A stretch of DNA of 64,000 nt from Flavobacteriales bacterium. Its GTDB lineage: Bacteria > Bacteroidota > Bacteroidia > Flavobacteriales_F > PHOS-HE28. A program made the position numbers and the translations under genes. Below are positions 7,968-32,219 of this stretch, piece after piece. The DNA lies in assembly GCA_016715995.1 (NCBI GenBank), contig JADJXF010000009.1, positions 318,436 to 382,435 on the forward strand, read 5' to 3'. The notes below the pieces were generated by a model. The model worked only from the letters and a program-made list of their open reading frames with translations, made no database searches and was not told where the DNA came from. Within the stretch, counting starts at the first letter, position 1; every line of letters starts with the position of its first letter.

Positions 7968-8831
7968 TCACCCAATCACCCAAAGCCTTTTCGCTTCCAG
8001 CCTGAAGCGCACCTCATTCCCAATGGTCATGGGCTCGCCATCCAGGTGCGCGAGGGTGCCCTCCTGCCACACTTGCGCTTCCGTGGCGGTGATGTTGCGC
8101 ACGTACGGGTTGCGGTCGGCGCGGTGGGTGTAGATGTCGAAGAAGGCCTTGAGCAATGGGAAGAAAGGCGGCTTCTGAACCACGCGCAGCTCCGCCTGGC
8201 CATCATCGGGCAGTGAGCCGGGGCTGATGTCGGCGCCGTTGCCGAATTCGCGCGTATTGCAGAACACCAGCATGAGCACCTCCTGCTCGGTGGTCTCGTG
8301 GTTGGCCTTCACCACCACGCGCATCGGCGGCGCGCCGAAGATCTCCTGCACGATGATCCTGGCGTAACCGAGCATGCCGCGTCGCTTGCTCTTATCGAAG
8401 CGGTCCGCCACGCGCGCATCGAAGCCGATGCCGGCATTGCCAAGGAAGAAGGAGTCGTTGAGGTAGCACACATCCATCAGCCGCGGTGGGCCCGTAAGCG
8501 CATGCCGCAGCGCCTTCTCCGGATCCAGGGGCAGCTTGATGGACCGCGCGTAGCCGTTGCCGCTTCCCATGGCCACGATACCCATCGGGACCTCGCCGCC
8601 GAGCAGCCCCTGCGCGATGGCGTTGTTCGTGCCGTCGCCGCCGACGCTGATCACACGGTCAGCGCCTGCGGCCAAGGCCTCGCGCGCCAGCGTGGTGCCA
8701 TGACCTGGACCCTCTACTTCCCGCAACGTGAGTTCCATCCCAAGCTCGCGGCCCACGCGCTCCGCGATGCCCTTGATGCGCGGCGCCTGGTGCTTGCCGG
8801 ATCGGGGATTGTAGATCAGCGTGGCCTTCAT
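7968..8831 (-). CDS. diacylglycerol/lipid kinase, DAGK catalytic domain (YegS/DgkB-like)
   Basis: MKATLIYNPRSGK...VISVGGDGTNNAIAQGL...IVAMGSGNGYARS, the GGDGT nucleotide-binding motif. Its start overlaps the LtaS-like stop by 4 nt. Confidence 0.85.
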   Translation of the reverse strand: MKATLIYNPRSGKHQAPRIKGIAERVGRELGMELTLREVEGPGHGTTLAREALAAGADRVISVGGDGTNNAIAQGLLGGEVPMGIVAMGSGNGYARSIKLPLDPEKALRHALTGPPRLMDVCYLNDSFFLGNAGIGFDARVADRFDKSKRRGMLGYARIIVQEIFGAPPMRVVVKANHETTEQEVLMLVFCNTREFGNGADISPGSLPDDGQAELRVVQKPPFFPLLKAFFDIYTHRADRNPYVRNITATEAQVWQEGTLAHLDGEPMTIGNEVRFRLEAKRLWVIG

Positions 8832-10675
8832 GGCAGAGTGAGCTCCTGGCGCAGGAGGCGGTTGTTGAATTGCTGGATGGCGGCCTGCAGCACACTTTCC
8901 TTTTCGCTGCTGCTCGTGCCGTTCCCATCGGAACGCACCACGCCATCCGCATCGATGGCGAGGTAGCTGCCGGTAGTGCGCGTCACCGCCATGGGCGCGC
9001 GCTCATCGCGCAGCGCGCTGCTCCCGAAGCTAAAGAAGGGCCGGGTCATGCCGATCAGGTCCATCGCGGTGGGCACGATGTCGATGTGCTGGGTCACGCG
9101 ATCCACCGTTCGTGGCGCGATGGCCTCCGGCATGTGGAAGAGCAGGGGTACCCAGTAGTCCACGGCCTCGGAATACTGTTGGCCCGTGCGGTCGATGTCG
9201 GCGGTGTGGTCGGCGGTGATGATGAACAGCGTATTGCCGAACCATGGCTGTTTCCGGGCTGTCTCGAAGAAACGCCGGAGCGCGTCATCGGTGTACCGCA
9301 GCGAAGGATGGATCCGCAGCGTACCGCCCGCGAATCGCTCGGCATCCTCCGGAAGCAAGTGGTAGGGGTGGTGAGAACTGAGCGTGAAGACCGTGCTGAA
9401 GAAGGGCTGTTGCTCCTGGCTGAGTTCATTCGCCACGTACTGGAGGTACGGACGGTCCCAGATTCCCCAAGAGCCATCGTAATCCTCCTTCACCGGGTAT
9501 TCCTCCAGCCCACGGTAGCGAGCGTATCCGGCGCTCTTGGCGAAGCTGTCGAAGCCCATGGTTCCGTTTCGACCGCCATGGTAGAAGCTGGTGGAATAGC
9601 CCTCCTCGGCCAGCAGGTTCGCCATCGACGTGAACGGCGTCTGTGCGTACACCGAGGTGATGAAGGCCTCGTCCATCAGCTCCGGGATCGCGGCGGTGAT
9701 GGCCGGTATGCCATCGATGCTGCGGCGCCCATTCGCATAAGCGCGTGTGAACGTGAGGCTCTGCGCCATCAGCGAATCGAGGAAGGGCATGTAGCCTTCG
9801 TTGCCGGAGAGCTTTGCGCTGTACGCGGCGGAGAAGCTCTCAAGGATGAGCAGCACCACGTTCGGGCGCGTGCTGGCGATCGCGATTGATTCCGGCGTGT
9901 TCTTCTGCTCGCTGTACTGATGCTCAACCGGCCACAAGCGATCCGCTTCTTCCTGTGTCATGTATGCCTTCTTCTCCACCACCGGCTTGCCCCAGGTCAT
10001 CATGATGGTGAAGGGCGTGTTCAGGACCACCGAGAAGTAGGGTGGCGGCACATGGTCGGCGGCGTTCATCACACCAATCGGAATGAGCTGCACGCCGCCG
10101 CGCGAGGCCAGCACGAGGAGCGCAATGGTCACCACGCGCCACATGATTCGCCTGTCCGGACTTGAATAGCCGCTGGCCGAAAGCCGCGCTGCGCGCCGAT
10201 ACGCCCACCACGCGAAGACCAGGCAGGCGATGAAGAGAAGCACGATGTACCAATACTCCTTCGCGAACACCGTTGCAAGGCTTCCGGTGTCACCGCCCCC
10301 TGCCATGATGCCGAAAAGGTCAGCGGTGCTGCGCTTCAAGGTGAACTTGTAGTATTCGAGGTCGGCGCAGGCGAAGAAGAAGCCGATGGCATTCACCACC
10401 ACGAACATGGTCTGCTTCACACGGGCGAACCAGCCTTGCTCCGTGTCGTGCGCTAGGCAGAGCACGATCCACGGCAGGTTGAGCCAGGCCAGTACGCTCA
10501 AATCGAAACGGATGCCGCCCCAATACGCGGCGAAGGGCACGTTCGGGAAGGCGTCGCGGTTGAGCAGCACGAAGGCGATGCGCAGCAGCGTGTACACGAG
10601 CGCGAGCGCGCCCATCCGGGCAAGCATCACGAGCAAGGGTCCGCGCAGGTTTCGCACGGCGCCAAAGATGCGCAA
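8828..10675 (-). CDS. LTA-synthase/sulfatase-family (LtaS-like) polytopic membrane phosphotransferase
   Basis: About 5 N-terminal TM helices, then a sulfatase/alkaline-phosphatase fold (VVLLILESFSAAY..., HGGRNGTMGFD, ADHTAD). 615 aa. Confidence 0.85.
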   Translation of the reverse strand: MRIFGAVRNLRGPLLVMLARMGALALVYTLLRIAFVLLNRDAFPNVPFAAYWGGIRFDLSVLAWLNLPWIVLCLAHDTEQGWFARVKQTMFVVVNAIGFFFACADLEYYKFTLKRSTADLFGIMAGGGDTGSLATVFAKEYWYIVLLFIACLVFAWWAYRRAARLSASGYSSPDRRIMWRVVTIALLVLASRGGVQLIPIGVMNAADHVPPPYFSVVLNTPFTIMMTWGKPVVEKKAYMTQEEADRLWPVEHQYSEQKNTPESIAIASTRPNVVLLILESFSAAYSAKLSGNEGYMPFLDSLMAQSLTFTRAYANGRRSIDGIPAITAAIPELMDEAFITSVYAQTPFTSMANLLAEEGYSTSFYHGGRNGTMGFDSFAKSAGYARYRGLEEYPVKEDYDGSWGIWDRPYLQYVANELSQEQQPFFSTVFTLSSHHPYHLLPEDAERFAGGTLRIHPSLRYTDDALRRFFETARKQPWFGNTLFIITADHTADIDRTGQQYSEAVDYWVPLLFHMPEAIAPRTVDRVTQHIDIVPTAMDLIGMTRPFFSFGSSALRDERAPMAVTRTTGSYLAIDADGVVRSDGNGTSSSEKESVLQAAIQQFNNRLLRQELTLP

Positions 10676-10678
10676 GGA

Positions 10679-12187
10679 TCACCGCGCTGGCCGGTATATC
10701 CAGCGGCCATCAACGGCTGACACTGGCGCGCCTAGCGGATAGGCCCATTGCAGGAAGCGTAGGCTGTCTAGCGGCCGGTCGCTGATCACGTAGCGCACCT
10801 CGCCGGATCGCATCATCGCATCGAAGCGACCCAGGTCGAACGGCGGATCCACGCTCCATTCCACGATATCCTTCTGGCTCACGAGGCTCTGGCCGTTCAA
10901 CAGCAGCTCAAGATGCCCGCGATAGGTGATGAACACATGATCCATGGGTAGCAGACCGAATTCATCCTTCAGTACGGAATGGAGGCGCTCATCTGATTGA
11001 AGCCGTGCCTCGTGCTTGGCGTCATCGCCGAGCGCAAGGACCGTGTAACGCAAGGCGGACGCACGGTGAACCATGTATTGCCCGGCTTGCAGGAAGAAGA
11101 TCAGCACGAGGGCCGAAGCCATAGTGCGGGATGTGTTCAGCAGTTTCGGTTCAGCGCTCATCACCGCGCAACCGACGAAGACAAGCACGAGGTTCTCGAA
11201 GAAGTAGTTGTATTCACTGCCGGCCTTCAACGCGGTGAGGAAGGCGAAGGCAAGGCTCAGTGGAATGGAGAGCAACAGGAATCGCGACAGCGGATCCCGG
11301 CGTTTGAGGAGGGCTACCGGAATCAACAGCGATGCGGCATGCCAGCCGACGAGGTGGAGGTAGTCGCGCGAGGCGAACAGATGCCGGAGGTAATCGTTCC
11401 GCAGTCCGTTCCGCAAGCCGCCAACGGTGTTCGCTAGGAGCAGGCTCATGTCCTCTCCTTGCAGCAACGCGCTGCCAACGACGAGCAGCGTGAGCCCGGC
11501 TGCCCCGGAGAACCACGCGAGCGCACGCCAATCGCGCAGCCAGAGGAGCAGCAGCGGCACAAGCATGAAGAGCAGGATCGCGGTCTGCTTGAAAAGCAGC
11601 GCGACCGCGGCCATCGCTCCGGCCAGCAGCATGGCGTCTCGCTTCTGCCGCGATGCTTCCGCTCGCGCGTAGCGGAACACGAAGAACAGCGTAGCGACGA
11701 ATCCGAGGGCGTATAGCGCATCCACGCGTCCGAAGAAGTGCTTGCTGAACGCGGCGAACGTGAGCAGGCCAGCGATCACCGCGCCTGATCGGTTGGCGCC
11801 AGCGGCCCGTGCAGCGGCGAAGACCACCGCCAACGTGAGCAGGTTGAGTACGAGCGACAGAATGCGGTTCAGCAGGTAAAGCGCTCGGAGCTCGTATGCG
11901 CCGATGCCCAGCGCCCTTGCGGTCCCCGCCACGAGCGCATGATAGGCCGGCGTGTATTGCACCACATCGAACGGCTGCTGCTGCGGATCGGTGTAGAGCG
12001 CCTTCCCCAGCATGATCTTCTGGATGCCGTGCATCACGCTCAGCTCCGCACCGGCGATGTCAGGGCTGTGACTCGTGATCAACGGCACGCGTAGACCGGT
12101 CATCACCACGACGCAGGCCCCCAGCAGCACCAGCAGCAGCTTGCGCGTCGGGGCGATCAGCCTATCCGTTGCTGTTAGCATGCCCAT
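10679..12187 (-). CDS. polytopic membrane protein, GT-C-type glycosyltransferase-like (ArnT/PMT-like)
   Basis: 502 aa with about 11 predicted TM segments and an early loop YTDPQQQPFDVVQYTPAYH. The family assignment is an inference from topology and operon context only. Confidence 0.5.
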   Translation of the reverse strand: MGMLTATDRLIAPTRKLLLVLLGACVVVMTGLRVPLITSHSPDIAGAELSVMHGIQKIMLGKALYTDPQQQPFDVVQYTPAYHALVAGTARALGIGAYELRALYLLNRILSLVLNLLTLAVVFAAARAAGANRSGAVIAGLLTFAAFSKHFFGRVDALYALGFVATLFFVFRYARAEASRQKRDAMLLAGAMAAVALLFKQTAILLFMLVPLLLLWLRDWRALAWFSGAAGLTLLVVGSALLQGEDMSLLLANTVGGLRNGLRNDYLRHLFASRDYLHLVGWHAASLLIPVALLKRRDPLSRFLLLSIPLSLAFAFLTALKAGSEYNYFFENLVLVFVGCAVMSAEPKLLNTSRTMASALVLIFFLQAGQYMVHRASALRYTVLALGDDAKHEARLQSDERLHSVLKDEFGLLPMDHVFITYRGHLELLLNGQSLVSQKDIVEWSVDPPFDLGRFDAMMRSGEVRYVISDRPLDSLRFLQWAYPLGAPVSAVDGRWIYRPAR

Positions 12188-12193
12188 GTCCCT

Positions 12194-12913
12194 TCATCCT
12201 TGGCGATCACCTGCATCTGCTGATGGCTTGCGCGCGACGCACAGCAGCGATCGTCCGAAGGAGTGCAGCACCAGCTTGTCCGTCACCCGCGAGCACGGAA
12301 CAACCATGCGGTCCCAGAAGCGCAGTTGCCCCATGGTAGGCGCGTTTTGGCGAAGCAGGCACTTGTTGGCCAGCGAGGGCAGGAGTCCCGCGCTGTCCAG
12401 GTAGCGGAGGTCGATGACTTCCAGCGGCGAGGGCAATTCACTGCGGAGCATGCGCTTGTCGTACCGGCGGAAATGCCCGATGGCACGGTCGAATTCGCTG
12501 AAGAGGAAGTTGAACGCAGGCACAAGGATGAGCAGGTGACCACCGGGCTGGAGCAACGCGTAGGCGCGTTGCAGTTCCGCGCTGCTGTCCTCAATGTGCT
12601 CGATCACATCGATGTAGAGGATGGTGTCGAACCGCCGACCGGTGAGCTGCGCCGTGGTGCCGTGGATGCGTTCCGCTGCGCCGAGGACCGGCTGCGACGT
12701 GAACGGAGGAACGCGATCGAGCAGCGCCTGGTCTGGTTCGAGGAAGGTGTACGCGCTCACTCGCTCATTCACGAGGTGCTCCGCATTGGCGCCGATGCCG
12801 CAGCCCACATCGAGCACCTGCCCCCGCACGCAGGGTCGCAGCACGCCCGAGAAATAGCGCTTCCAGTTGCGTGCGTGCTGGAAGAGGTCCAGCTCCGTGC
12901 CTTGATAGGTCAT
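12194..12913 (-). CDS. class I SAM-dependent methyltransferase
   Basis: VLDVGCGIGANAEHL (motif I, GxGxG) ... LQPGGHLLILVP. ATG at 12911-12913 overlaps the upstream GT2 stop (ATGA). Confidence 0.75.
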   Translation of the reverse strand: MTYQGTELDLFQHARNWKRYFSGVLRPCVRGQVLDVGCGIGANAEHLVNERVSAYTFLEPDQALLDRVPPFTSQPVLGAAERIHGTTAQLTGRRFDTILYIDVIEHIEDSSAELQRAYALLQPGGHLLILVPAFNFLFSEFDRAIGHFRRYDKRMLRSELPSPLEVIDLRYLDSAGLLPSLANKCLLRQNAPTMGQLRFWDRMVVPCSRVTDKLVLHSFGRSLLCVARKPSADAGDRQG

Positions 12914-13842
12914 GCGCTCCCGTCGGGATGCACGGTGTACAGATGCCGACCCGCGCGTTCGCGACGCTGGGCGGTGTTCACCAGCAGCAGGCCGGTGGTG
13001 AAGAAGCCCAGGCACAGCAGCATTCCGTTGAAGAGCGAGACAGAAAGCAAACTGGCCCATCCCGGGATGGCCCACGGGGTGAAGAGCTTGATGCCCACGA
13101 TGGCCATGAGCGAGAGCAAGAGGACGATCGCCAAGCCGATGAGGCCGCGCAGGAATGTGGAGAGCACCTCTTCACTGTACTCGATCAGCGCACGGAAAGC
13201 GTGCACGCTCAGTCCGCGGAAGCTCATCTTGCTGGTGCCGTCGATGCGCGGACGCCGGTCGCGCACGATGACGCGGGTGGCCACGCGCTGCCGGGAGAGG
13301 AAAGCCGCATAATGCGTGAATGAACGGTCGAGCACGGCGGACAGGACGCGGCGATCGATCATGCAGTAGTTGCCGAAGGGGATGCTGCGACCAGCGAGCA
13401 GCCGGAAGACGAGCCGGTATACCTGATAGCCGATCCGGAAGCCCACCGGCTCCGAGCGTCGGCCACGGGCCACGAAGGCGATGGACGCCTCCGAGATGCC
13501 CGCAAGCTCGACGATGGCACCCGGATCATCCTCGCCATCGCTGTCCATCACGATGAAGCGCCCGGCATCCAGCGTGCTGGCGAACTGCAGGCCCTGGTAG
13601 ATGGCTTCCTGATGCCCCATGTTGTAGCCCAGTGAAAGGCAGCGGAGCTTCACGTTCGGGGCGCTGGACGTATGCGCCAGCAGCAGGTGCAGGGTGTCGT
13701 CGGGGCTCGCGTCGTCCACCATCACCACCGTGAAACGGTGCGGCTGCCGGGCAAGCACCTGCTCCAGTTCCTCCACGAAGCGGACGGCCACGCTCCCCTC
13801 GTTGTAGCAGGGCGCGATGATGGCGAAGTGCTGGTCGGTCAT
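12910..13842 (-). CDS. GT2 polyprenyl-phosphate glycosyltransferase (ArnC/DPM1/GtrB-like)
   Basis: MTDQHFAIIAPCYNEG...VVMVDDASPDDT...VMDSDGEDDP, the DxD/ED catalytic motifs, plus two C-terminal TM helices typical of ArnC/GtrB. Confidence 0.85.
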   Translation of the reverse strand: MTDQHFAIIAPCYNEGSVAVRFVEELEQVLARQPHRFTVVMVDDASPDDTLHLLLAHTSSAPNVKLRCLSLGYNMGHQEAIYQGLQFASTLDAGRFIVMDSDGEDDPGAIVELAGISEASIAFVARGRRSEPVGFRIGYQVYRLVFRLLAGRSIPFGNYCMIDRRVLSAVLDRSFTHYAAFLSRQRVATRVIVRDRRPRIDGTSKMSFRGLSVHAFRALIEYSEEVLSTFLRGLIGLAIVLLLSLMAIVGIKLFTPWAIPGWASLLSVSLFNGMLLCLGFFTTGLLLVNTAQRRERAGRHLYTVHPDGSA

Positions 13843-13867: not shown

Positions 13868-13950
13868 TGTTGTCAGTTGTCTGTTCTCGGTTGCCCGTCG
13901 CACCGACCCCGCCTTCACTGACAACCGACAACCGGGAACTGACAACTCGC
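13868..13950. promoter_or_regulatory. imperfect inverted repeat rich in GTTGTC/GACAAC hexamers in the divergent promoter region
   Basis: Left arm gtgttgtcagttgtctgttctcggttg; right arm cactgacaaccgacaaccgggaactgacaactc. It lies between the minus-strand lipid operon start (13842) and the E1 gene. Confidence 0.35.
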
Positions 13951-13986: not shown

Positions 13987-13994
13987 TACCTTTG
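13987..13994 (+). promoter_or_regulatory. Bacteroidota -7-like promoter box TACCTTTG
   Basis: Matches TAnnTTTG and lies 16 nt upstream of ATG 14010. This argues against the TTG start at 13992 used by the ORF track. Confidence 0.3.
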
Positions 13995-14009
13995 CCCCGC
14001 TTAACCATC

Positions 14010-16058
14010 ATGCCCACACTGACCACGGAGGATCGCCAGCTCCACTTCGAGCACGGCACCCACACCGACGCCTTCCTCATCGCCACCTACGAGAAGCTCG
14101 TCTTCCCCCGCATCATCGAGGAGAAGATGCTCAGTTTGCTGCGCCAGGGTAAGATCAGCAAATGGTTCAGCGGCATCGGTCAGGAGGCCATCAGCGTGGG
14201 CGCGGCCATGGCCCTGCACCCGGACGAGTACATCCTGCCGATGCACCGCAACCTGGGCGTGTTCACCACGCGCGGCATGCCCTTCCGCAAGCTCTTCGCG
14301 CAATGGCAGGGCAAGGCCACCGGTTACAGCAAGGGCCGCGAGCGCAGCTTCCACTTCGGCAGCCAGGAGCACAAGGTGGTGGGCATGATCAGCCACCTAG
14401 GGCCGCAGATGGGCATCGCCGACGGCATCGCGCTGGCGCACAAGCTGAAGAAGGAGAATCGCTGCACCATCGTCTTCACCGGCGATGGCGCCACCAGCGA
14501 AGGCGATTTCCACGAGAGCGTGAACGTGGCGGCGGTATGGGACCTGCCCGTGCTCTTCATCATCGAGAACAACGGCTACGGACTGAGCACGCCCAGCAGC
14601 GAGCAGTTCCGCATGAAGAGCTTCGTGGACAAGGCCATCGGCTACGGCATCGAAGGCGTGCAGATCGCCGGCAACAACATCCTGGAGGTGTACGACAACA
14701 TCGCGCGGCTGGCCGACAGCGTGCGCGAGAACCCGCGTCCCATCTTGGTGGAGTGCATCACCTTCCGCATGCGCGGCCACGAGGAAGCCAGCGGCACCAA
14801 GTACGTGCCCAAGGAGCTTTTCGAGGAATGGGGCAAGAAGGATCCCGTGGCCAACTACGAGGCCTGGCTGCTGAAGATCGGCGTCCTCACCATCGCGAAG
14901 CGCGACGAGATCCGCACGCGGCTGAAGGATGGCATCGAGGCCGATTTGAAGTTGGCGTTCGAGGAGCCGGAGCCGGTTCCCGTTGAAGAGGTGGAGGTGG
15001 GTGATGTATACGCGCCCGTTCCGAGCGGGGGCGAGGGGGGCGCGAGTACCAAGCTGCCCCTCGACTCCGCTCAGGGCAGTCGTGAGATCCGCATGATCGA
15101 TGCGATCCAAGAAGGCATGGCGCAAAGCATGGAGCGCCACGCCAACCTCGTCCTCATGGGCCAGGACATCGCGGAGTACGGCGGTGCGTTCAAGATCACG
15201 GAGGGCTTCGTGGAGCAATTCGGCAAGGACCGGGTGCGCAACACGCCGTTGTGCGAGAGCGCGATCCTGGGTGTATCGCTCGGCCTCAGCATCAAGGGCA
15301 TGAAGTCGATGATGGAGATGCAGTTCGCCGATTTCGTCAGCGAGGGCATCACGCAGATCTGCAACAACCTCGCGAAGGCCCACTACCGCTGGGGGCAGAA
15401 CGCCGACGTGGTGGTGCGCATGCCCACCGGTGCCGGAGTGGGAGCGGGGCCCTTCCACAGCCAGAGCAACGAGATGTGGTTCGTGAAGACGCCCGGACTG
15501 AAAGTGGTGTACCCGAGCAACCCCTACGATGCCAAGGGCCTGCTCATGACCGCCTTCGACGACCCGAATCCGGTGATGTTCTTCGAGCACAAGGCCATGT
15601 ACCGCAGCATCACCGGGCCGGTGCCCGAGCAGCCTTACTGCATTCCCTTCGGCAAGGCGAATGTTGTGCGTGAAGGCAAGGCCCTAACGATCATCACCTA
15701 CGGCATGGGCGTGCATTGGGCAATGGAGACAGTGCAAGCCCTGAGCGGAGTCGAAGGGCGACCAATTGATGCGGAGATCATAGATCTAAGAACACTCGTT
15801 CCCCTCGATGTGGACACCATCCTCACCAGCGTGAAGAAGACCGGCAAGGCCCTCGTGCTGCACGAGGACACCCTCACCGCCGGCATGGGCGGCGAGATCA
15901 GCGCGCTCATCAACGAGCACGCCTTCGAATACCTCGATGCACCCGTGGTGCGCGTGGCGAGTTGGGATACGCCCGTGCCTTTCGCTATTCCGCTGGAGAA
16001 TGGCTTCTTGCCGAAGGGGAGGTTGAAGGCGGCGGTGGAGAGGTTGGTGAACTACTGA
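14010..16058 (+). CDS. 2-oxoacid (pyruvate/branched-chain) dehydrogenase E1 component, fused alpha/beta subunits
   Basis: TPP-binding GDGATSEGDFHESVN...IENNGYG in the alpha part; a transketolase-like beta part (MQFADF..., GPFHSQS). Ends ...FAIPLENGFLPKGRLKAAVERLVNY. Confidence 0.9.
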   Translation: MPTLTTEDRQLHFEHGTHTDAFLIATYEKLVFPRIIEEKMLSLLRQGKISKWFSGIGQEAISVGAAMALHPDEYILPMHRNLGVFTTRGMPFRKLFAQWQGKATGYSKGRERSFHFGSQEHKVVGMISHLGPQMGIADGIALAHKLKKENRCTIVFTGDGATSEGDFHESVNVAAVWDLPVLFIIENNGYGLSTPSSEQFRMKSFVDKAIGYGIEGVQIAGNNILEVYDNIARLADSVRENPRPILVECITFRMRGHEEASGTKYVPKELFEEWGKKDPVANYEAWLLKIGVLTIAKRDEIRTRLKDGIEADLKLAFEEPEPVPVEEVEVGDVYAPVPSGGEGGASTKLPLDSAQGSREIRMIDAIQEGMAQSMERHANLVLMGQDIAEYGGAFKITEGFVEQFGKDRVRNTPLCESAILGVSLGLSIKGMKSMMEMQFADFVSEGITQICNNLAKAHYRWGQNADVVVRMPTGAGVGAGPFHSQSNEMWFVKTPGLKVVYPSNPYDAKGLLMTAFDDPNPVMFFEHKAMYRSITGPVPEQPYCIPFGKANVVREGKALTIITYGMGVHWAMETVQALSGVEGRPIDAEIIDLRTLVPLDVDTILTSVKKTGKALVLHEDTLTAGMGGEISALINEHAFEYLDAPVVRVASWDTPVPFAIPLENGFLPKGRLKAAVERLVNY

Positions 16059-16061
16059 GCG
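15980..16061 (+). repeat. direct repeat copy 1 (last 27 codons of the E1 gene)
   Basis: ttcgctattccgctggagaatggcttcttgccgaaggggaggttgaaggcggcggtggagaggttggtgaactactga. A 39-nt core is identical to the copy at 16741-16823. The AGG/TTG/GGG codon usage is atypical for this gene. Confidence 0.7.
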
Positions 16062-16081
16062 GATGATCTAGTTTTGGTTCG

Positions 16082-16468
16082 ATGAGCAAGCTTGGGATCA
16101 AGGGCAGCATTCCGGTGGACAAGGGGCGGGTGGAACTGAAGCTGTCCTTGTTGAAGTTCAAGGAGGACGACATCGTTTTCATCTACAGCCCGGCACTGGA
16201 CCTTACCGGCTATGGGAAGGACGGCCGCTCCGCTAAGCGTTCGTTCGAGATCACGCTAGAGGAATTCGTGAACTACACCACCAATAAAGGAACTCTGGAC
16301 AAGGAGTTGCGGCGGCTCGGTTGGACGGTCGGCGGGAGCAAGCGCTCACCGAAGTTCCAGCAACCCTACTTGGATGAATTGTTCAAGGCCCGACCCTATC
16401 TCGGCGAGATCTTCCGCGAGAAGGAGTTCCAGCGGTTTGATGAGGAGGTGATGTTCCCAGCAGCCTGA
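16082..16468 (+). CDS. HicB-like antitoxin (UPF0150 / RNase H-like fold)
   Basis: KFKEDDIVFIYSPALDLTGYGKDGRSAKRSFEITLEEFVNYT matches the HicB N-domain pattern (D-GY-v-sP-L-G--t-G-T-EEA). It lies immediately upstream of hicA with a 2-nt gap. Confidence 0.55.
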   Translation: MSKLGIKGSIPVDKGRVELKLSLLKFKEDDIVFIYSPALDLTGYGKDGRSAKRSFEITLEEFVNYTTNKGTLDKELRRLGWTVGGSKRSPKFQQPYLDELFKARPYLGEIFREKEFQRFDEEVMFPAA

Positions 16469-16470
16469 GC

Positions 16471-16704
16471 ATGTCTCCCGGCCTGCGGAACATACCGTTG
16501 CGCCGGTACCGGAAGTTCTTGGAGCAGCAGGGGTGCAAGTGCATTCGAACCAAAGGCGGCCATGAGCATTGGGCCAGGGCCGATCTGAACAGGCCGATCA
16601 CGCTCCAAAGCCACATCGACCCCGTGCCGGAGTTCATCGTGCGACAGCACCTCCGCTACCTTGGCGTGGACCTCGACGAGTTCGAGAAGTTGATGGGACG
16701 TTGA
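16471..16704 (+). CDS. hicA: HicA-family mRNA interferase toxin (YcfA-like)
   Basis: YRKFLEQQGCKCIRTKGGHEHWARADLNRPITLQSHIDPVPEFIVRQHLRYLGV, versus E. coli HicA FRRWLESQGV...GSNHLKLR...PRHPCDEIKEPLRKAILKQLGL. 77 aa. Confidence 0.75.
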   Translation: MSPGLRNIPLRRYRKFLEQQGCKCIRTKGGHEHWARADLNRPITLQSHIDPVPEFIVRQHLRYLGVDLDEFEKLMGR

Positions 16705-16740
16705 TTGAACCGGAGAAGAACATGAAAGCCATTGTGACCT

Positions 16741-16823
16741 TCGCAATTCCGCTGGAGAACGGTTTCCTACCGAAGGGGAGGTTGAAGGCGGCGGTGGAGA
16801 GGTTGGTGGGGTATTGAGCCTGC
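16741..16823 (+). repeat. direct repeat copy 2, an orphan 3' fragment of an E1 gene (...FAIPLENGFLPKGRLKAAVERLVGY*)
   Basis: ttcgcaattccgctggagaacggtttcctaccgaaggggaggttgaaggcggcggtggagaggttggtggggtattga. It differs from copy 1 mostly at synonymous positions. The sequence preceding it is unrelated. Confidence 0.7.
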
Positions 16824-16929
16824 GACGCATTATCCGCAAAGCCAGTCTCAGAAATAACGACGATCCGATGATGCTTTGCTTTTGGAGTTGGTCCAATCAG
16901 GTGAACTGGCTTGGGGCATCGGTTAACTA

Positions 16930-17349
16930 TTGTTGACGCGATTCGAAGAGGCACGGATTCGACGAAGGATTCAGCAGAAGTTTGGTGGTAAATGGTACCG
17001 AGATGATATGAACGAGTACCACGTAAAGCCTGAAGATCGGCACAAGCAGTTTGGGGTTTGCTTGAATTTGGAGATTGATATCAGCGCAAAGTCTTTCCGA
17101 ACCATTGAGATGAAGGTACGCTATGATAAATCCCGCGGCTTAGCGGAGGCTGTTATGGAGGTAAGAGGTGACCAACTGAACCATATCGAAGGACCATTTT
17201 CCTATACCGTGGAGACAGACCCTTGCTATGGTGATGCTGGTTGGTACCGCGTTCAATTGGTCGAGTCGAACAAACTGTATGTCTACTACGAAGGTTTGGG
17301 GCGCATGAAGCACATCTCTGGTTATGAGGTATGGAAGAAGAGGCAATAG
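16930..17349 (+). CDS. hypothetical protein in a low-GC (about 45%) segment
   Basis: 139 aa, MLTRFEEARIRRRIQQKFGGKWYRDDMNEYHV.... No family recognised. Local GC is far below the 63% background. Confidence 0.5.
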   Translation: MLTRFEEARIRRRIQQKFGGKWYRDDMNEYHVKPEDRHKQFGVCLNLEIDISAKSFRTIEMKVRYDKSRGLAEAVMEVRGDQLNHIEGPFSYTVETDPCYGDAGWYRVQLVESNKLYVYYEGLGRMKHISGYEVWKKRQ

Positions 17350-17410
17350 ACCTCCTCAATCTTGCGCCGGCTTACCGAATCTGCAATTCCCGATTCTCAA
17401 TACTCTGTCT

Positions 17411-17665
17411 CTACTTCCTGAGCCATTTCGTAGGCGCATTATGGCGGTAGCGTTTACCATCGCAAACACGGTCCCACACATCGAGGATGCTCTTTGAATT
17501 GTGCAGCGGCTCCTTGCCCGATTGCACCAAACGTCGGTTCCTCTTCCGCATGCGGCGATTTGCCAGTTGCTTATAGGCCCTGCCGCCATGGTGTTCCCAG
17601 TAGCCGAAAAATGGCTGGTGTTTTCTGGAACGGGACATGGCCTTGCCATTTGAATAGCACGGCAT
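17411..17665 (-). CDS. small basic hypothetical protein (84 aa)
   Basis: MPCYSNGKAMSRSRKHQPFFGYWEHHGGRAYKQLANRRMRKRNRRLVQ.... Tandem operator-like repeats lie directly upstream. It may be a remnant of a mobile-element gene. Confidence 0.25.
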   Translation of the reverse strand: MPCYSNGKAMSRSRKHQPFFGYWEHHGGRAYKQLANRRMRKRNRRLVQSGKEPLHNSKSILDVWDRVCDGKRYRHNAPTKWLRK

Positions 17666-17695
17666 GACGCAAGAATATCCGTGAGGGTTGTCCTT

Positions 17696-17782
17696 AGACC
17701 TCAGCAGGGTCCCACTCTAGACCTCAGCAGGGTGTCACCCGCTCCCGAGCGCTGGGCGTGTATTGCTAAATCTCAGCAGGAT
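17696..17782. repeat. three copies of A(G/A)A(C/T)CTCAGCAGG(G/A)T, two spaced 23 bp apart and a third 49 bp further on
   Basis: agacctcagcagggt at 17696 and 17719; aatctcagcaggat at 17768. They lie 30-120 bp upstream of the 17665 minus-strand start. Confidence 0.4.
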
Positions 17783-17850
17783 CTCGCGCCTTCAAGTACC
17801 CTGCGCCCTGTCCATCAATGCGCCGCTGCTTCCCGTACGCCGTTCGCACG

Positions 17851-18063
17851 TCAGTTCAGCTCCCGGAGCAGCGCCTTGTACTCGGGATTCTTGCTGAAGT
17901 GTTCCGCACCGAGGCCGATCACCACGCGCGCCGAATCCAGTTGACCGGAATCCTGCAGGTGTTCGGCATGACGGACCAAGCCTTCGCGCAGCAGGCGGCG
18001 CTGGTCGGTGGGGAGCCGCTCGATGTCCGGTATCGCCGCATAGGCCCGGTCGAAACCTTTCAT
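17851..18063 (-). CDS. helical (TPR-like) ORF, probably the frame-shifted C-terminal part of the 18096..18575 gene
   Basis: Its frame is open upstream (...QLLALTQLKLRLARDAGES-MKGFDRAYAAIPDIERLPTDQRRLLREGL...) and overlaps the end of the upstream ORF in a different frame. Confidence 0.35.
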   Translation of the reverse strand: MKGFDRAYAAIPDIERLPTDQRRLLREGLVRHAEHLQDSGQLDSARVVIGLGAEHFSKNPEYKALLRELN

Positions 18064-18095
18064 GCTCTCTCCGGCATCGCGTGCCAGCCGCAGCT

Positions 18096-18575
18096 TCAGT
18101 TGGGTGAGGGCCAGTAGCTGCCAGCGGCGTTCTCGGGCTGGTATCCCGTCATCCGATCGAACTGGCGTTTGGCCTTGCTGTATTCACCCAGGTCCAGGTG
18201 CAGGAAGCCCGCATCCATCGCTGCGGTGTTCAGCTCCTGCCAATAGTCCGCGTAGTTGTTGAAGTAGGCCAGGCCCTTGTCCTTCTTGCGGAATTTCTCG
18301 GCGAACTTCAACGCTTCGCGGTGCGCGTTCTTGAATTCCGGATCCGAAGTGTACTTGTCCAGTCGGCTCATCTCATGCCAGCACATACTGCTGTAGAGGT
18401 ATGGCAATGGATCGCGGCGCGTATCGTCCTTTTCGATGTACCGGGCGGCCTTGGCGATGCACTTCTCGTACTCCTCGTCCACATAGAGCACCAAGAGGTC
18501 ATCGTACACATGGTCCTGCGCGGCGGCAGGTGTGAGCAGCAACAAGGCGGCGAGCATGATCGTCGGTCTTTGCAT
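18096..18575 (-). CDS. secreted helical/TPR-like hypothetical protein
   Basis: MQRPTIMLAALLLLTPAAAQ signal peptide, then a YEKCIAKAARYIEKD...YADYWQELNTAA helical-repeat sequence. Confidence 0.6.
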   Translation of the reverse strand: MQRPTIMLAALLLLTPAAAQDHVYDDLLVLYVDEEYEKCIAKAARYIEKDDTRRDPLPYLYSSMCWHEMSRLDKYTSDPEFKNAHREALKFAEKFRKKDKGLAYFNNYADYWQELNTAAMDAGFLHLDLGEYSKAKRQFDRMTGYQPENAAGSYWPSPN

Positions 18576-18680
18576 GGCATGTTGGATAGGGAGCGTGGGC
18601 CACAAGGATGGTGCCGACATGCCTGCGCAAACGCTCATCGCACCCGCTCCCGCGGATCTGCGATCCGTGGTCTAGCATCT

Positions 18681-19052
18681 TCAGTCACCTGTCGGCTTTA
18701 TCGCACTCGTCTCCACCATCAGCACCACGGTTTTCTTCGGTGCGCGCGGGCGATGCATCACGCCTTTGGTGATGGTAACGCCTTGCTGCGGGTTCAACTC
18801 GATCGTGCGGTCCTCCAGGTCGATCAGCAATTGACCTTCCAGCACGAAGAAGAACTCGTCGTCATCCTCGTGCTTGTGCCAGTGGAAGTCCCCTTCCAGC
18901 ATGCCCAGACGCACCACGCTGTCGTTCACTTGCGTCAGCGTTCGGTTGGCCCACTTCACCTGCGTGGCGGCAACAATCGTGGGTACATCTATGCGCTCAA
19001 GGTGCGGGTATTGCACGGCCAGGTCGATATCGTAGGTCGTCGGTCGGTCCAT
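18681..19052 (-). CDS. cupin-domain protein
   Basis: GDFHWHKHEDDDEFFFVLEGQLLIDL...TITKGVMHRP, the two cupin motifs. 123 aa. Confidence 0.8.
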   Translation of the reverse strand: MDRPTTYDIDLAVQYPHLERIDVPTIVAATQVKWANRTLTQVNDSVVRLGMLEGDFHWHKHEDDDEFFFVLEGQLLIDLEDRTIELNPQQGVTITKGVMHRPRAPKKTVVLMVETSAIKPTGD

Positions 19053-30788: not shown

Positions 30789-31703
30789 TCAACCTGCCTT
30801 CGCTCCCGCGCGCGGGTGGAAGCGCAGGATGTTGCTGCGCAGGTATTCCCGATCCAGGTGCGTGTAGATCTCCGTGGTGGTGATGCTGGCATGGCCGAGC
30901 ATCTCCTGCACCGCGCGCAGGTCCGCGCCGCCCTCAACCAGATGCGTGGCGAACGAGTGCCGGAAGGTGTGCGGGCCGATGGTCTTGCGCACGCCAGCGC
31001 GCACGGCCAGTCGCTTCACAAGGTTGAAGACGGACATGCGCGACAGTCCTCCGCCGCGCGCGTTGAGGAAGACGATGTCCTCCGCCTTCTTCTGCACAGG
31101 CAGTGCGGCGCGTTCGTGCCGCACGTAGAGCCCGATCCAATGCAGGGCCTCCGCGCCGATGGGAACCAGCCTTTCCTTGTCGCCCTTGCCCACCACGCGC
31201 AGGAATCCTTCGGCGGCGCTGATGCGCGATAGACGCAGCCCGCAGAGCTCGCTCACGCGAAGTCCGCAGCCATAGAGCGTTTCGATGATCGCCCTGTCAC
31301 GGTGCGCCAGTCGCGCGCTCAGGTCCACCGCGTCGGCCAACGCGTCGATTTCATCTATGGAGAGGAAGACAGGCAGCTTGCGACCCAGCCGTGGGCTCTC
31401 GATCAATTCGCTCGGGTCGTTGTCGATGGCCTTGTCCACAAGTAGGCTGCGGTGGAATACGCGCACCGCGCTGAGCAGGCGTGCCTGACTTGTGGCAGCG
31501 AGTCCTGTGCGCGCTTGGCTGGTGATGAAGGCTTGCAGGTCGTCCAGGGTCAGGCAATCAGGCGGCAGGGGCGGGGCGTTCCCTTCGGCGAAGGCACGCA
31601 GCTTGGCGATGTCGTGCGCATAGGCCTGCACGGTCCGGTCACTGAGCGCGCGCTCGAGCTTCAGGTACATGCGGAAGCCGCGCAGGGCCTTCTCCCAATC
31701 CAT
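30789..31703 (-). CDS. xerD: site-specific tyrosine recombinase XerD
   Basis: MDWEKALRGFRMYLKLERALSDRTVQAYAHDIAKL...GLRVSEL...GKGDKER...HTFRHSFATHLVEGGADLRAVQEMLGHASITTTEIYTH, giving R..HxxR..Y. ATG at 31703. The 470-aa track ORF has an artifactual extension. Confidence 0.85.
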   Translation of the reverse strand: MDWEKALRGFRMYLKLERALSDRTVQAYAHDIAKLRAFAEGNAPPLPPDCLTLDDLQAFITSQARTGLAATSQARLLSAVRVFHRSLLVDKAIDNDPSELIESPRLGRKLPVFLSIDEIDALADAVDLSARLAHRDRAIIETLYGCGLRVSELCGLRLSRISAAEGFLRVVGKGDKERLVPIGAEALHWIGLYVRHERAALPVQKKAEDIVFLNARGGGLSRMSVFNLVKRLAVRAGVRKTIGPHTFRHSFATHLVEGGADLRAVQEMLGHASITTTEIYTHLDREYLRSNILRFHPRAGAKAG

Positions 31704-31793
31704 GCACGAAGGTTCATTGTCGTTGGTCGCTGGTGCCGCGCTGGTCACCCTGGCTTCCAACGCTGCGCTGTTCATCCGCATCTTCGCGCGGCG

Positions 31794-32219
31794 ATGGCGC
31801 GCTTCCTCATCCTCAACGGGCCCAACCTCAACCTGCTTGGATCGCGGGAGCCGTCGGTCTATGGAGGCCGTTCCTTCGAGGAGTACCTGGTGGACCTGCG
31901 CGGCGAGTTCGCGGCGCACGCCATCGTTCATGTGCAGAGCAACATCGAAGGGGAATTGGTAGAGGCCGTGCAGCGCGCGGATGGGGCGTACGATGGCTTG
32001 GCGCTCAATGCCGGCGGGTTCACGCACACCTCCGTTGCGCTGCGCGATGCGATCGCTGCGGTGCGCATCCCGGTTGTGGAGGTGCACATCAGCAACCTGC
32101 TGGAGCGGGAGCCCTTCCGCCACGTTTCGCTCACGGGCGGCGTATGCATCGGGAGCATCATGGGCCTCGGCCTCGATGGCTACCGGCTCGCCATCGCCCA
32201 TCTGCTTCAGCGCCGCTGA
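31794..32219 (+). CDS. aroQ: type II 3-dehydroquinate dehydratase
   Basis: MARFLILNGPNLNLLGSREPSVYG...ALNAGGFTHTSVALRDA...VVEVHISN. 141 aa. ATG at 31794. Confidence 0.9.
   Translation: MARFLILNGPNLNLLGSREPSVYGGRSFEEYLVDLRGEFAAHAIVHVQSNIEGELVEAVQRADGAYDGLALNAGGFTHTSVALRDAIAAVRIPVVEVHISNLLEREPFRHVSLTGGVCIGSIMGLGLDGYRLAIAHLLQRR

Follow-up and report, generated by a model that had tools for sequence, protein, structure and literature searches.

A HicAB-type toxin-antitoxin cassette and a displaced gene terminus at the 3' end of a 2-oxoacid dehydrogenase E1 gene in Flavobacteriales

Our analysis of a 64,000-nt stretch of DNA from a Flavobacteriales bacterium (GCA_016715995.1, contig JADJXF010000009.1, positions 318,436-382,435 of the forward strand; hereafter the window), whose source was placed as a Flavobacteriales metagenome-assembled genome (MAG), showed that a two-gene HicAB-type toxin-antitoxin cassette is inserted at the 3' end of the gene for the fused alpha/beta E1 component of a 2-oxoacid dehydrogenase (hereafter E1). 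The native end of the gene has been displaced and now lies 0.76 kb further downstream as an orphan fragment, and the working gene ends in a tail that is linked to the cassette. We consider it probable that the cassette came to occupy this site through homologous recombination of the kind known as terminus displacement. [quoted passage not shown]

The E1 open reading frame (ORF) has 688 codons, although its true start is possibly the ATG at 14010, and its orthologues are 62-89% identical across 80 Bacteroidota genomes. As the first-pass annotation of this locus had proposed from the letters of the sequence, the E1 terminus is duplicated: we found an 86-nt direct repeat of 87% identity with a start-to-start spacing of 759 nt, which leaves an insert of 673 nt between the copies (Table 1). 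A 39-nt core is identical in the two copies and occurs exactly twice in the window, where zero exact matches are expected by chance; it probably marks a gene-conversion or crossover tract. Upstream of the core, within the codons shared with E1 (FAIPLENGFL), the copies differ at five positions, all of them synonymous, which agrees with the evolution of both copies inside functional E1 genes. Two more mismatches at the left edge change Pro to Thr, and after the core the E1 copy ends in AAC TAC TGA (N-Y-stop), whereas the orphan copy ends in GGG TAT TGA (G-Y-stop). Only two ORFs, of 128 and 77 amino acids, lie between the copies, and no integrase gene was found in the cassette or adjoining it among the window ORFs and by Pfam search, both as first annotated. 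Neither copy shows dyad symmetry (inverted repeats seeded on 6 nt or more are absent from both). The GC content is 0.57 in the cassette, 0.62 in the window and 0.63 in E1. Since the same architecture recurs in independent assemblies (L007, L087, L028, L001 and the Logan contigs L167-L170; L numbers are our locus designations), the cassette and the duplicated E1 end are not an assembly artefact.

To identify the native terminus, we used a comparative set of 80 E1 loci (of roughly 590) from species-representative genomes with 6-kb flanks; filled and empty sites in this set belong to separate species and not to strains of one species. About 25 close relatives, with E1 proteins 77-89% identical, lack the cassette and possess only one E1 end, and their commonest tails are …VERLVGY or …AGY before the stop codon. 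Over the last 21 nt, the orphan copies match such cassette-free tails almost perfectly (0/21 differences between the window orphan and the E1 of L023, 0/21 between the L014 orphan and the E1 of L008, and 1/21 for the L007 orphan), whereas the E1 tails of the cassette-bearing loci window, L007, L028 and L014 differ from cassette-free tails at 4-11 of the 21 positions, 4 in the case of the window, and the range among cassette-bearing genomes reaches 13. The native tail is G-Y-stop, and a (D/N)-Y-stop tail is common to the E1 genes of the window, L001, L167 and L028. In L014, moreover, the motif found after E1 itself in cassette-free genomes stands downstream of the orphan. This identifies the orphan as the ancestral terminus, now displaced, and shows that the tail of the working E1 gene travels with the cassette; the last two codons of E1 in the window have been replaced by cassette-linked sequence. 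Both the insertion of the cassette into the E1 3' end and the ending of the intact gene in element-linked sequence, as first annotated, are thus borne out. The AGG, TTG and GGG codons near the E1 end had been offered as a mark of element origin, and they are indeed atypical for the gene (AGG is used for 0 of 31 Arg codons in the E1 body), but they lie in the shared core and are kept in cassette-free relatives (AGG in 22/31 and TTG in 22/31), so that this argument fails.

The E1 terminus also holds other cargo. In L014 (8049-10119), a cassette of about 2 kb lies between 79-nt E1-end repeats and carries a Lit-like peptidase of the phage-exclusion type (Pfam U49, 1.4e-8; NCBIfam Lit, 8e-33; PADLOC Lit, 2e-24), a HicAB-like pair that is inverted and distantly related (41% and 55% identity), and a lysine-rich gene of 83 amino acids that belongs to an unknown family. 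In L015 (8058-9800), two successive orphan E1-end fragments are present, and the tail of E1 itself is aberrant (…ERFRPGGF); this arrangement suggests the tandem accretion of two cassettes, the second of which carries the same 83-aa gene as L014. L022 has an ORF of 222 amino acids of unknown family with a 20-nt E1-end repeat. By eye this ORF was a candidate for an HUH/RayT-like transposase, which Pfam and PDB searches did not confirm. Finally, L044, a Thermoflexibacter MAG with an E1 66% identical to that of the window, has a complete HaeII restriction-modification (RM) unit at the E1 end (7983-10040; C5 methylase, 4e-92; RE_HaeII endonuclease, 5e-155). Its repeats are 35 nt long and identical at 34 of 35 positions, each of them extends over the stop codon and 5 nt past it, and no tail replacement is seen. 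L044 is thus a classic case, from another Bacteroidota order, of insertion with long target duplication at this gene end. The E1 terminus is thus a recurrent landing site for small selfish or defence cassettes, each with its own repeats of 20-165 nt, and a recombinase gene was present in 0 of the 7 E1-end cassettes seen in the genome loci.

A literal target-site duplication, in which a staggered double-strand break or replicative repair duplicated about 86-165 nt of the recipient E1 end, would account well for L044, and this class of event has been described for RM systems (PMC2853133). As an account of the cassette in the window it seems to us very improbable. The upstream and downstream tails differ in the window, L001, L167, L007, L014 and L028, and related cassettes in different hosts share the upstream tail, which is not expected if both copies derive from the recipient.

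The extent of the repeat differs among loci (about 165 nt in L007, L087 and L028; 86 nt in the window and L167; 79 nt in L014; 48 nt in L001; 35 nt in L044; 20 nt in L022). The left boundary of the orphan lies at about -165 nt in L007 and L028 and is shortened to -86 nt in the window and L167. Within a genome, the two copies share lineage-specific substitutions (95% identity over 113 nt in L028 and 94% over 79 nt in L014) despite deeply diverged cassettes, and therefore recombination between the copies has continued, that is, they evolve in concert.

The recombination pathway and any present-day mobility can be proposed from these comparisons as follows. The incoming DNA would consist of an E1 3' segment with a slightly different tail, the cassette and a second, partial E1 3' segment. 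On recombination with the resident E1, the gene would stay intact and end in the cassette-linked …VNY, and the resident tail (…VGY), with the native DNA downstream of it, would come to lie behind the cassette as an orphan that is not translated. No dedicated recombinase would be needed, since the E1-end copies would themselves serve as substrates for host homologous recombination. The same host activity could keep converting the copies toward each other, as the identical 39-nt core suggests, and could also excise the cassette precisely, so that E1 regains a normal end; such proposed deletion would explain the patchy distribution of the cassette. The unit might re-insert wherever the E1 end of a genome is similar enough, either as a circle with one hybrid repeat or as a linear fragment in which E1 and the orphan act as homology arms. 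The expected junction of the empty site would read from the left-specific bases of E1 (…GAGAATGGCTTCTTG) through the core into GGGTATTGAGCCTGCGAC, and that of the circle from the hicA end through the left part of the orphan and the core into AACTACTGAGCGGATGATC and hicB. As an addiction or defence module, the toxin-antitoxin pair would resist loss. One-sided homology, completed by a second joint of the illegitimate kind, could have created the first duplication (PMC3240628).

The same cassette with the duplicated E1 end is found in L007, L087, L028, L001, L089 and L167-L170, with an antitoxin in L167-L170 that is 94% identical to that of the window and with truncated cassettes in L001 and L089. 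The E1 tree places the window, L007 and L001 together in a single subclade, where they are interleaved with the cassette-free L030, L003, L023 and L032, and L028 falls in a separate deep clade, the other members of which have no cassette. The antitoxin is 82% identical between L007 and L001, 80% between the window and L007, 79% between the window and L001, and 65-69% between L028 and all of these; at third positions the cassette (45-71% identity) is no more conserved than E1, or less so. The insertion is not recent, because the cassette and the duplication are syntenic in other species and have diverged as much as E1 or more; the occurrence in relatives that the first-pass annotation had named as evidence against its reading was thus found in part, as synteny in these other species. 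The association of the cassette with E1 is old and patchy; either precise losses have been numerous, or transfers have stayed among close relatives. A sliding-window comparison of identity, meant to show whether the 3' region of E1 was transferred together with the cassette, gave no cassette-specific signal; the 3' bins of E1 group the window with L007, L032 and L023, of which L032 and L023 are cassette-free.

Two loci differ in their arrangement. In L174 (2948-6066) and L175, a 70%-identical cassette stands directly after an E1 that keeps a native-type …IGY tail, and this may be the donor-type arrangement. In addition, the toxin gene hicA has a 1-nt deletion near codon 8 that is common to the independent assemblies L007 (8472-8500) and L087 (313-345), and a +2 frameshift in L028 (8456-8500). 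In these three loci the toxin may have lost its activity, or its translation may begin again at a TTG further downstream; the antitoxin gene is intact.

Several of these observations, together with some negative results, weigh against the terminus-displacement reading. The cassette tree mirrors the E1 tree and the third positions of the cassette have diverged at least as much as those of E1, so that no recent transfer is shown and the cassette could be an immobile old resident. The duplication is not obligatory, since in L174 and L175 the cassette follows E1 and no orphan copy is present in what remains of the contig downstream (443 nt in L174, the longer of the two), and the 5' frameshifts of hicA in L007/L087 and L028 suggest decay in some lineages. 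We saw neither a within-species empty/filled polymorphism nor an excised circle, and an exact scan of the metagenome collection did not find the 39-nt core (exact look-ups of the HicB-like and E1 proteins of the window likewise returned no contig). A recombinase acting in trans on the cassette is also conceivable: integrase-bearing elements were not found within the 6-kb flanks of the repeat-showing E1 loci, no search with integrase hidden Markov models (HMMs) covered all 80 loci, and a tyrosine recombinase gene, the nearest recombinase gene in the window, lies 14 kb from the cassette.

An alternative is that the cassette is an immobile fossil, that is, one ancient insertion before the lineages split that has been inherited vertically since, with repeated deletion, with the orphan refreshed by conversion from E1 and with no present movement. 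The congruent cassette and E1 distances given above, the left boundary of the orphan shared by L007 and L028, the toxin frameshifts and the truncated cassettes all agree with such a history. We nevertheless regard it as unlikely, because about ten independent precise losses would be needed on the E1 tree, and because the orphan tails are identical to the native tails of other species, for which the resident E1 cannot have been the conversion donor. Moreover, several unrelated cargoes at the same site with their own repeat boundaries imply repeated insertion events, and the toxin-antitoxin family is enriched for long flanking repeats in unrelated contexts (see below).

The explanation first offered for the locus was a site-specific element with an attL/attR-like pair. 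In this explanation, the cassette is a decayed integrative element (a cis-mobilizable element, CIME): a tyrosine or serine integrase targeted the E1 3' end and was then lost, and mobilization in trans is possible. A gene 3' end rebuilt by the element with a direct repeat downstream is the product of integrase insertion, and CIMEs are so defined (PMC5704250); the two orphan copies in L015 resemble tandem accretion, the window itself has a tyrosine recombinase gene 14 kb away, and a 65%-identical module is found in L171 (5001-8715) and L172, after an Nramp transporter gene rather than E1, with a gene for a 550-aa protein of unknown function and a tyrosine integrase 2 kb downstream. The end of the Nramp gene, however, is not repeated there. 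All seven E1-end cassettes of the genome loci lack a recombinase, no integrase-bearing element bounded by E1-end repeats was found among the repeat-showing loci of the 80 with their 6-kb flanks, and the viral collection, which yielded three distant HicB-like loci only, contained no match to a degenerate E1-end pattern and no relative of E1. An attL/attR pair generated by a site-specific recombinase is also not indicated, given the lack of dyad symmetry and the length and left boundary of the repeats, which vary from 20 to about 165 nt among cassettes and even inside one cassette family. The recombinase 14 kb away (30789-32201, minus strand; 470 amino acids with Phage_integrase and SAM_1 domains and a 170-aa N-terminal extension) stands among housekeeping genes (MutL, two rhomboids, an M1 peptidase and a family 2 glycosyltransferase), and no link between it and the cassette is shown. 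On balance, a decayed integrative element appears to us rather improbable. Two other kinds of element were considered and dropped: an integron gene cassette, since the cassette ends have no inverted-repeat structure (no attC), no integrase is adjacent and the cassette has a putative promoter of its own; and an integrative mobile element exploiting Xer (IMEX) at a dif site, since the repeats have no inverted-repeat structure.

The two proteins of the cassette have the folds of a HicA toxin and a HicB antitoxin. The first-pass annotation had expected HMM matches for both. The 77-aa protein has a sub-threshold match to Pfam HicA_toxin (PF07927), with an E value of 6e-5 and 23.5 bits against a gathering score of 27; the same model matches 36 of its 46 homologues (best E, 3.9e-7), several of which carry the NCBI or JGI name HicA family toxin, and the protein also matches PHROG 353 'toxin'. 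Its structure corresponds to the alpha-beta-beta-beta-alpha fold, similar to the double-stranded RNA-binding domain, of solved HicA proteins. In the 46 homologues, G30 and H31 are invariant and G29 is nearly so, and these residues align with the GGH of 1whz, so that H31 would be the catalytic histidine in its G-x-H context, a role taken from the literature. A phmmer search of the toxin against PDB sequences gave just spurious WD40 matches, and a profile of six HicA sequences matched 1whz weakly (E, 0.22).

The 128-aa protein, by contrast with the expectation, matches no HicB model: searches of Pfam, NCBIfam, PADLOC and PHROGs, which include HicB and HicB_lk_antitox (UPF0150), gave no match at E <= 0.01, and none of its 45 homologues has a precomputed Pfam domain. 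Its structure nevertheless corresponds to the N-terminal fold of HicB (partial RNase H-like, beta-beta-beta-alpha-beta), and only about 82-85 of its 128 residues can be superposed on HicB structures. In the model, the C-terminal part forms two short strands, two short helices and a further strand, and its last 40 residues gave no recognisable match to a ribbon-helix-helix (RHH) or helix-turn-helix (HTH) DNA-binding domain. A HicA homologue is directly 3' of the antitoxin homologue in 73 of 80 metagenome loci and adjoins it in all genome and Logan loci with enough sequence; the same pair occurs in Bacteroidales and Cytophagales genomes in unrelated contexts. This regular adjacency across loci and contexts shows that the pair is a real and widespread HicAB-type module. 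The 128-aa protein thus represents a widespread HicB-fold antitoxin family outside all sequence models, and the toxin gene, whose start lies 2 nt past the stop codon of the antitoxin gene, is coupled to it in translation in a bicistronic type II module. The cassette may act as an addiction or defence module through the putative activity of its toxin.

The sequence TAnnTTTG is the -7 promoter consensus of Bacteroidetes. The spacer between the E1 stop codon and the antitoxin gene carries TAGTTTTG (16069-16076), which fits this consensus and ends 5 nt before the hicB-like ATG, and TAnnTTTG is found 5-8 nt before the antitoxin ATG in the window, L167, L001, L007, L028 and L174, and also in L171 with its other genomic context. 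The cassette therefore probably brings its own Bacteroidetes-type promoter, whose upstream element would overlap the replaced E1 tail. Compared with the known HicAB systems (E. coli HicAB, Yersinia HicA3B3, Burkholderia HicAB and S. pneumoniae HicAB), the module shares the HicA fold with its G-G-H motif, a partner with the HicB N-terminal fold and adjacent, tightly coupled genes; it differs in the order of the genes, which is antitoxin followed by toxin, in an antitoxin that no HicB sequence model recognises and that has no recognisable RHH or HTH region in its C-terminal 40 residues, and in a toxin that scores under the Pfam gathering threshold.

Away from E1, direct repeats of at least 30 nt surround this toxin-antitoxin family in 11 of 65 other metagenomic contexts, compared with 2 of 280 random control segments (Fisher p = 3e-7). 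In L141, L142, L150, L152, L153, L155 and L158, the HicB-like/HicA module lies between direct repeats of 31-611 nt in unrelated contexts, and the repeat of L158 is the last 30 nt of an upstream ORF of 474 amino acids. We tentatively raise the possibility, which for now we hold to be doubtful, that E1 3'-end copies serve as portable homology arms, that is, that toxin-antitoxin, abortive-infection and RM cassettes in Bacteroidota would move by RecA-driven, recombinase-free recombination, with the E1 terminus as one dedicated docking site. If this were true, the enrichment of long repeats around the HicAB-like family elsewhere would be the footprint of such a life style.

The arrangement has counterparts in known systems. 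RM units insert without an integrase and with long target duplications, the repeats of which often span a start or stop codon (PMC2853133; see also PMC3874152). Our locus resembles these insertions (Furuta, Abe and Kobayashi 2010) in that a small addiction or defence unit with no mobility gene is flanked by direct repeats of tens to hundreds of bp that align to single-copy sequence in insert-free genomes and often span the stop codon; the repeats exceed 30 bp (86 nt), the insert is below 20 kb (673 nt) and an empty site exists in relatives. It differs in its toxin-antitoxin cargo (the window has no restriction or modification genes in this role, and these are found in L044), in the cassette-linked tail of the upstream copy, so that the copies are not simple target duplicates, and in that the genomes compared here are separate species, not strains. 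For the displacement of rhs C-terminal tips, a model of homologous recombination with a circular intermediate was put forward by Jackson et al. 2009 (PMC2935791). As in rhs and contact-dependent growth inhibition (CDI) loci, a piece of a conserved gene arrives together with a new tip and the genes linked to it, the resident tip is not lost but moves downstream, where it persists as a silent orphan that keeps its homology, arrays can build up (L015), and no recombinase gene is present; unlike in those loci, the target is a housekeeping metabolic gene, the tip comprises 2-7 codons with no functional novelty, and the payload is an unrelated selfish cassette instead of a toxin domain with an immunity gene. 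CIMEs and other elements integrated at gene 3' ends (PMC5704250) likewise have direct repeats at a gene 3' end rebuilt by the element, no integrase inside and possible tandem accretion, but here no cognate integrase-bearing element was found at the E1 end within the flanks, and the repeats are long and variable with no dyad symmetry. In Microcystis aeruginosa, a ParDE-like toxin-antitoxin module lies between 152-bp direct repeats downstream of MaOC1 (PMC7935541). Both this module and ours are two-gene type II modules between long direct repeats just downstream of an unrelated gene; the Microcystis module is ParDE-like, and its repeats are intergenic, contain inverted repeats and show no terminus displacement.

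The loci described here form a natural series at the end of a single housekeeping gene (an empty site, the cassette with a displaced terminus, the cassette with no orphan, tandem cassettes, and other cargo such as Lit and HaeII), which makes the recombination model testable and extends the long-target-duplication and terminus-displacement picture from RM and rhs loci to toxin-antitoxin modules of Bacteroidota. To our knowledge, the spread of toxin-antitoxin and small defence modules that have no mobility genes is poorly explained. Insertion with long target duplication of RM gene complexes was reportedly described by Nobusato and colleagues in 2000. The HicB-fold antitoxin family defined here is currently missed by annotation pipelines.

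Table 1. Features of the E1 3' end, the inserted cassette and the adjoining segment (positions in the window)
Feature	Position	Strand	Evidence or remark
Fused alpha/beta E1 component of 2-oxoacid dehydrogenase	13992..16058	+	Pfam E1_dh 3.6e-72, Transket_pyr 1.2e-33, Transketolase_C 2.5e-32; target gene
Upstream repeat copy (functional E1 3' end)	15975..16060	+	Self-alignment, repeat detection
39-nt identical core	16011..16049 and 16770..16808	+	Two exact matches in the window
Cassette-linked replacement tail (AAC TAC TGA, N-Y-stop) and 23-nt spacer	16050..16081	+	(D/N)-Y-stop tail shared among related cassettes
HicB-fold antitoxin candidate, 128 aa	16082..16468	+	Family covered by no sequence model
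HicA-family toxin, 77 aa	16471..16704	+	Starts 2 nt after antitoxin stop codon
Downstream (orphan) copy of E1 terminus	16734..16819	+	Displaced ancestral gene end; native tail GGG TAT TGA
Lineage-specific low-GC islet	16820..17800		GC 0.51; outside repeat-bounded cassette
Orphan-family gene, 113 aa	17008-17349	+	Real gene inside low-GC islet
Doubtful basic ORF, 84 aa	17411-17665	-	No homologue found
Three direct copies of a 21-nt unit (TAGACCTCAGCAGGGTnnCAC)	17695-17787		Repeat detection

Beyond the orphan copy lies a segment of low GC content, which the first-pass annotation had joined to the cassette. Its GC content is 0.51 (noted there as roughly 45%), compared with 0.62 for the window; no third E1-end copy was found to bound it, and it has no counterpart in the relatives; the islet is a separate, unexplained occupant of the same variable spot, with no demonstrated link to the cassette. 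The gene inside it, first annotated as an ORF of 139 amino acids, is really shorter: P0130 is 100% identical over residues 27-139, and the gene is read as one of 113 amino acids, for which six distant homologues were found in all among 1.8 billion representatives. The copies of the 21-nt unit lie between the 3' end of a gene encoding a protein with tetratricopeptide repeat (TPR)-like features and the doubtful 84-aa ORF, and nowhere else in the window. The native neighbours resume at 17851 with this TPR-like gene (17851-18638) and a cupin gene (18681-19052), which in relatives lie 1-4 kb downstream of E1. The TPR-like gene, on the minus strand, is split into ORFs of 70 and 180 amino acids and is contiguous in L002, L004 and L005; the split may be a frameshift, a pseudogene or an assembly error.

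Synonymous conservation is not raised in the last 15-codon windows of E1 (0.66-0.71, compared with a gene mean of 0.79), which gives no evidence of a functional element at the nucleotide level at the E1 end, and scans of 15500-18500 for Rfam families, sigma-70 promoters and terminators gave nothing above chance. A conserved motif, (C)AACGCGCCGACG…GGAACGCCGGCAGCG, is found about 10-45 nt after the E1 stop codon in several cassette-free relatives (L003, L008, L019, L023, L032 and L012) and after the orphan stop codon in L014; it may be a terminator, a small RNA or the end of a convergent gene. On the 5' side, a 30-nt inverted repeat (80% complementary, with an 18-nt spacer and GTTGTC/GACAAC-type units) lies just upstream of the E1 start (13869-13946). 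Between E1 and a conserved upstream gene, a three-gene block (10679-13842) encodes a membrane protein of 502 amino acids, a methyltransferase and a family 2 glycosyltransferase. The block is missing in L001, L007, L029 and L032, in which the conserved gene abuts E1, and present in L002, L004 and L005, and is thus a second variable spot, on the 5' side of E1.

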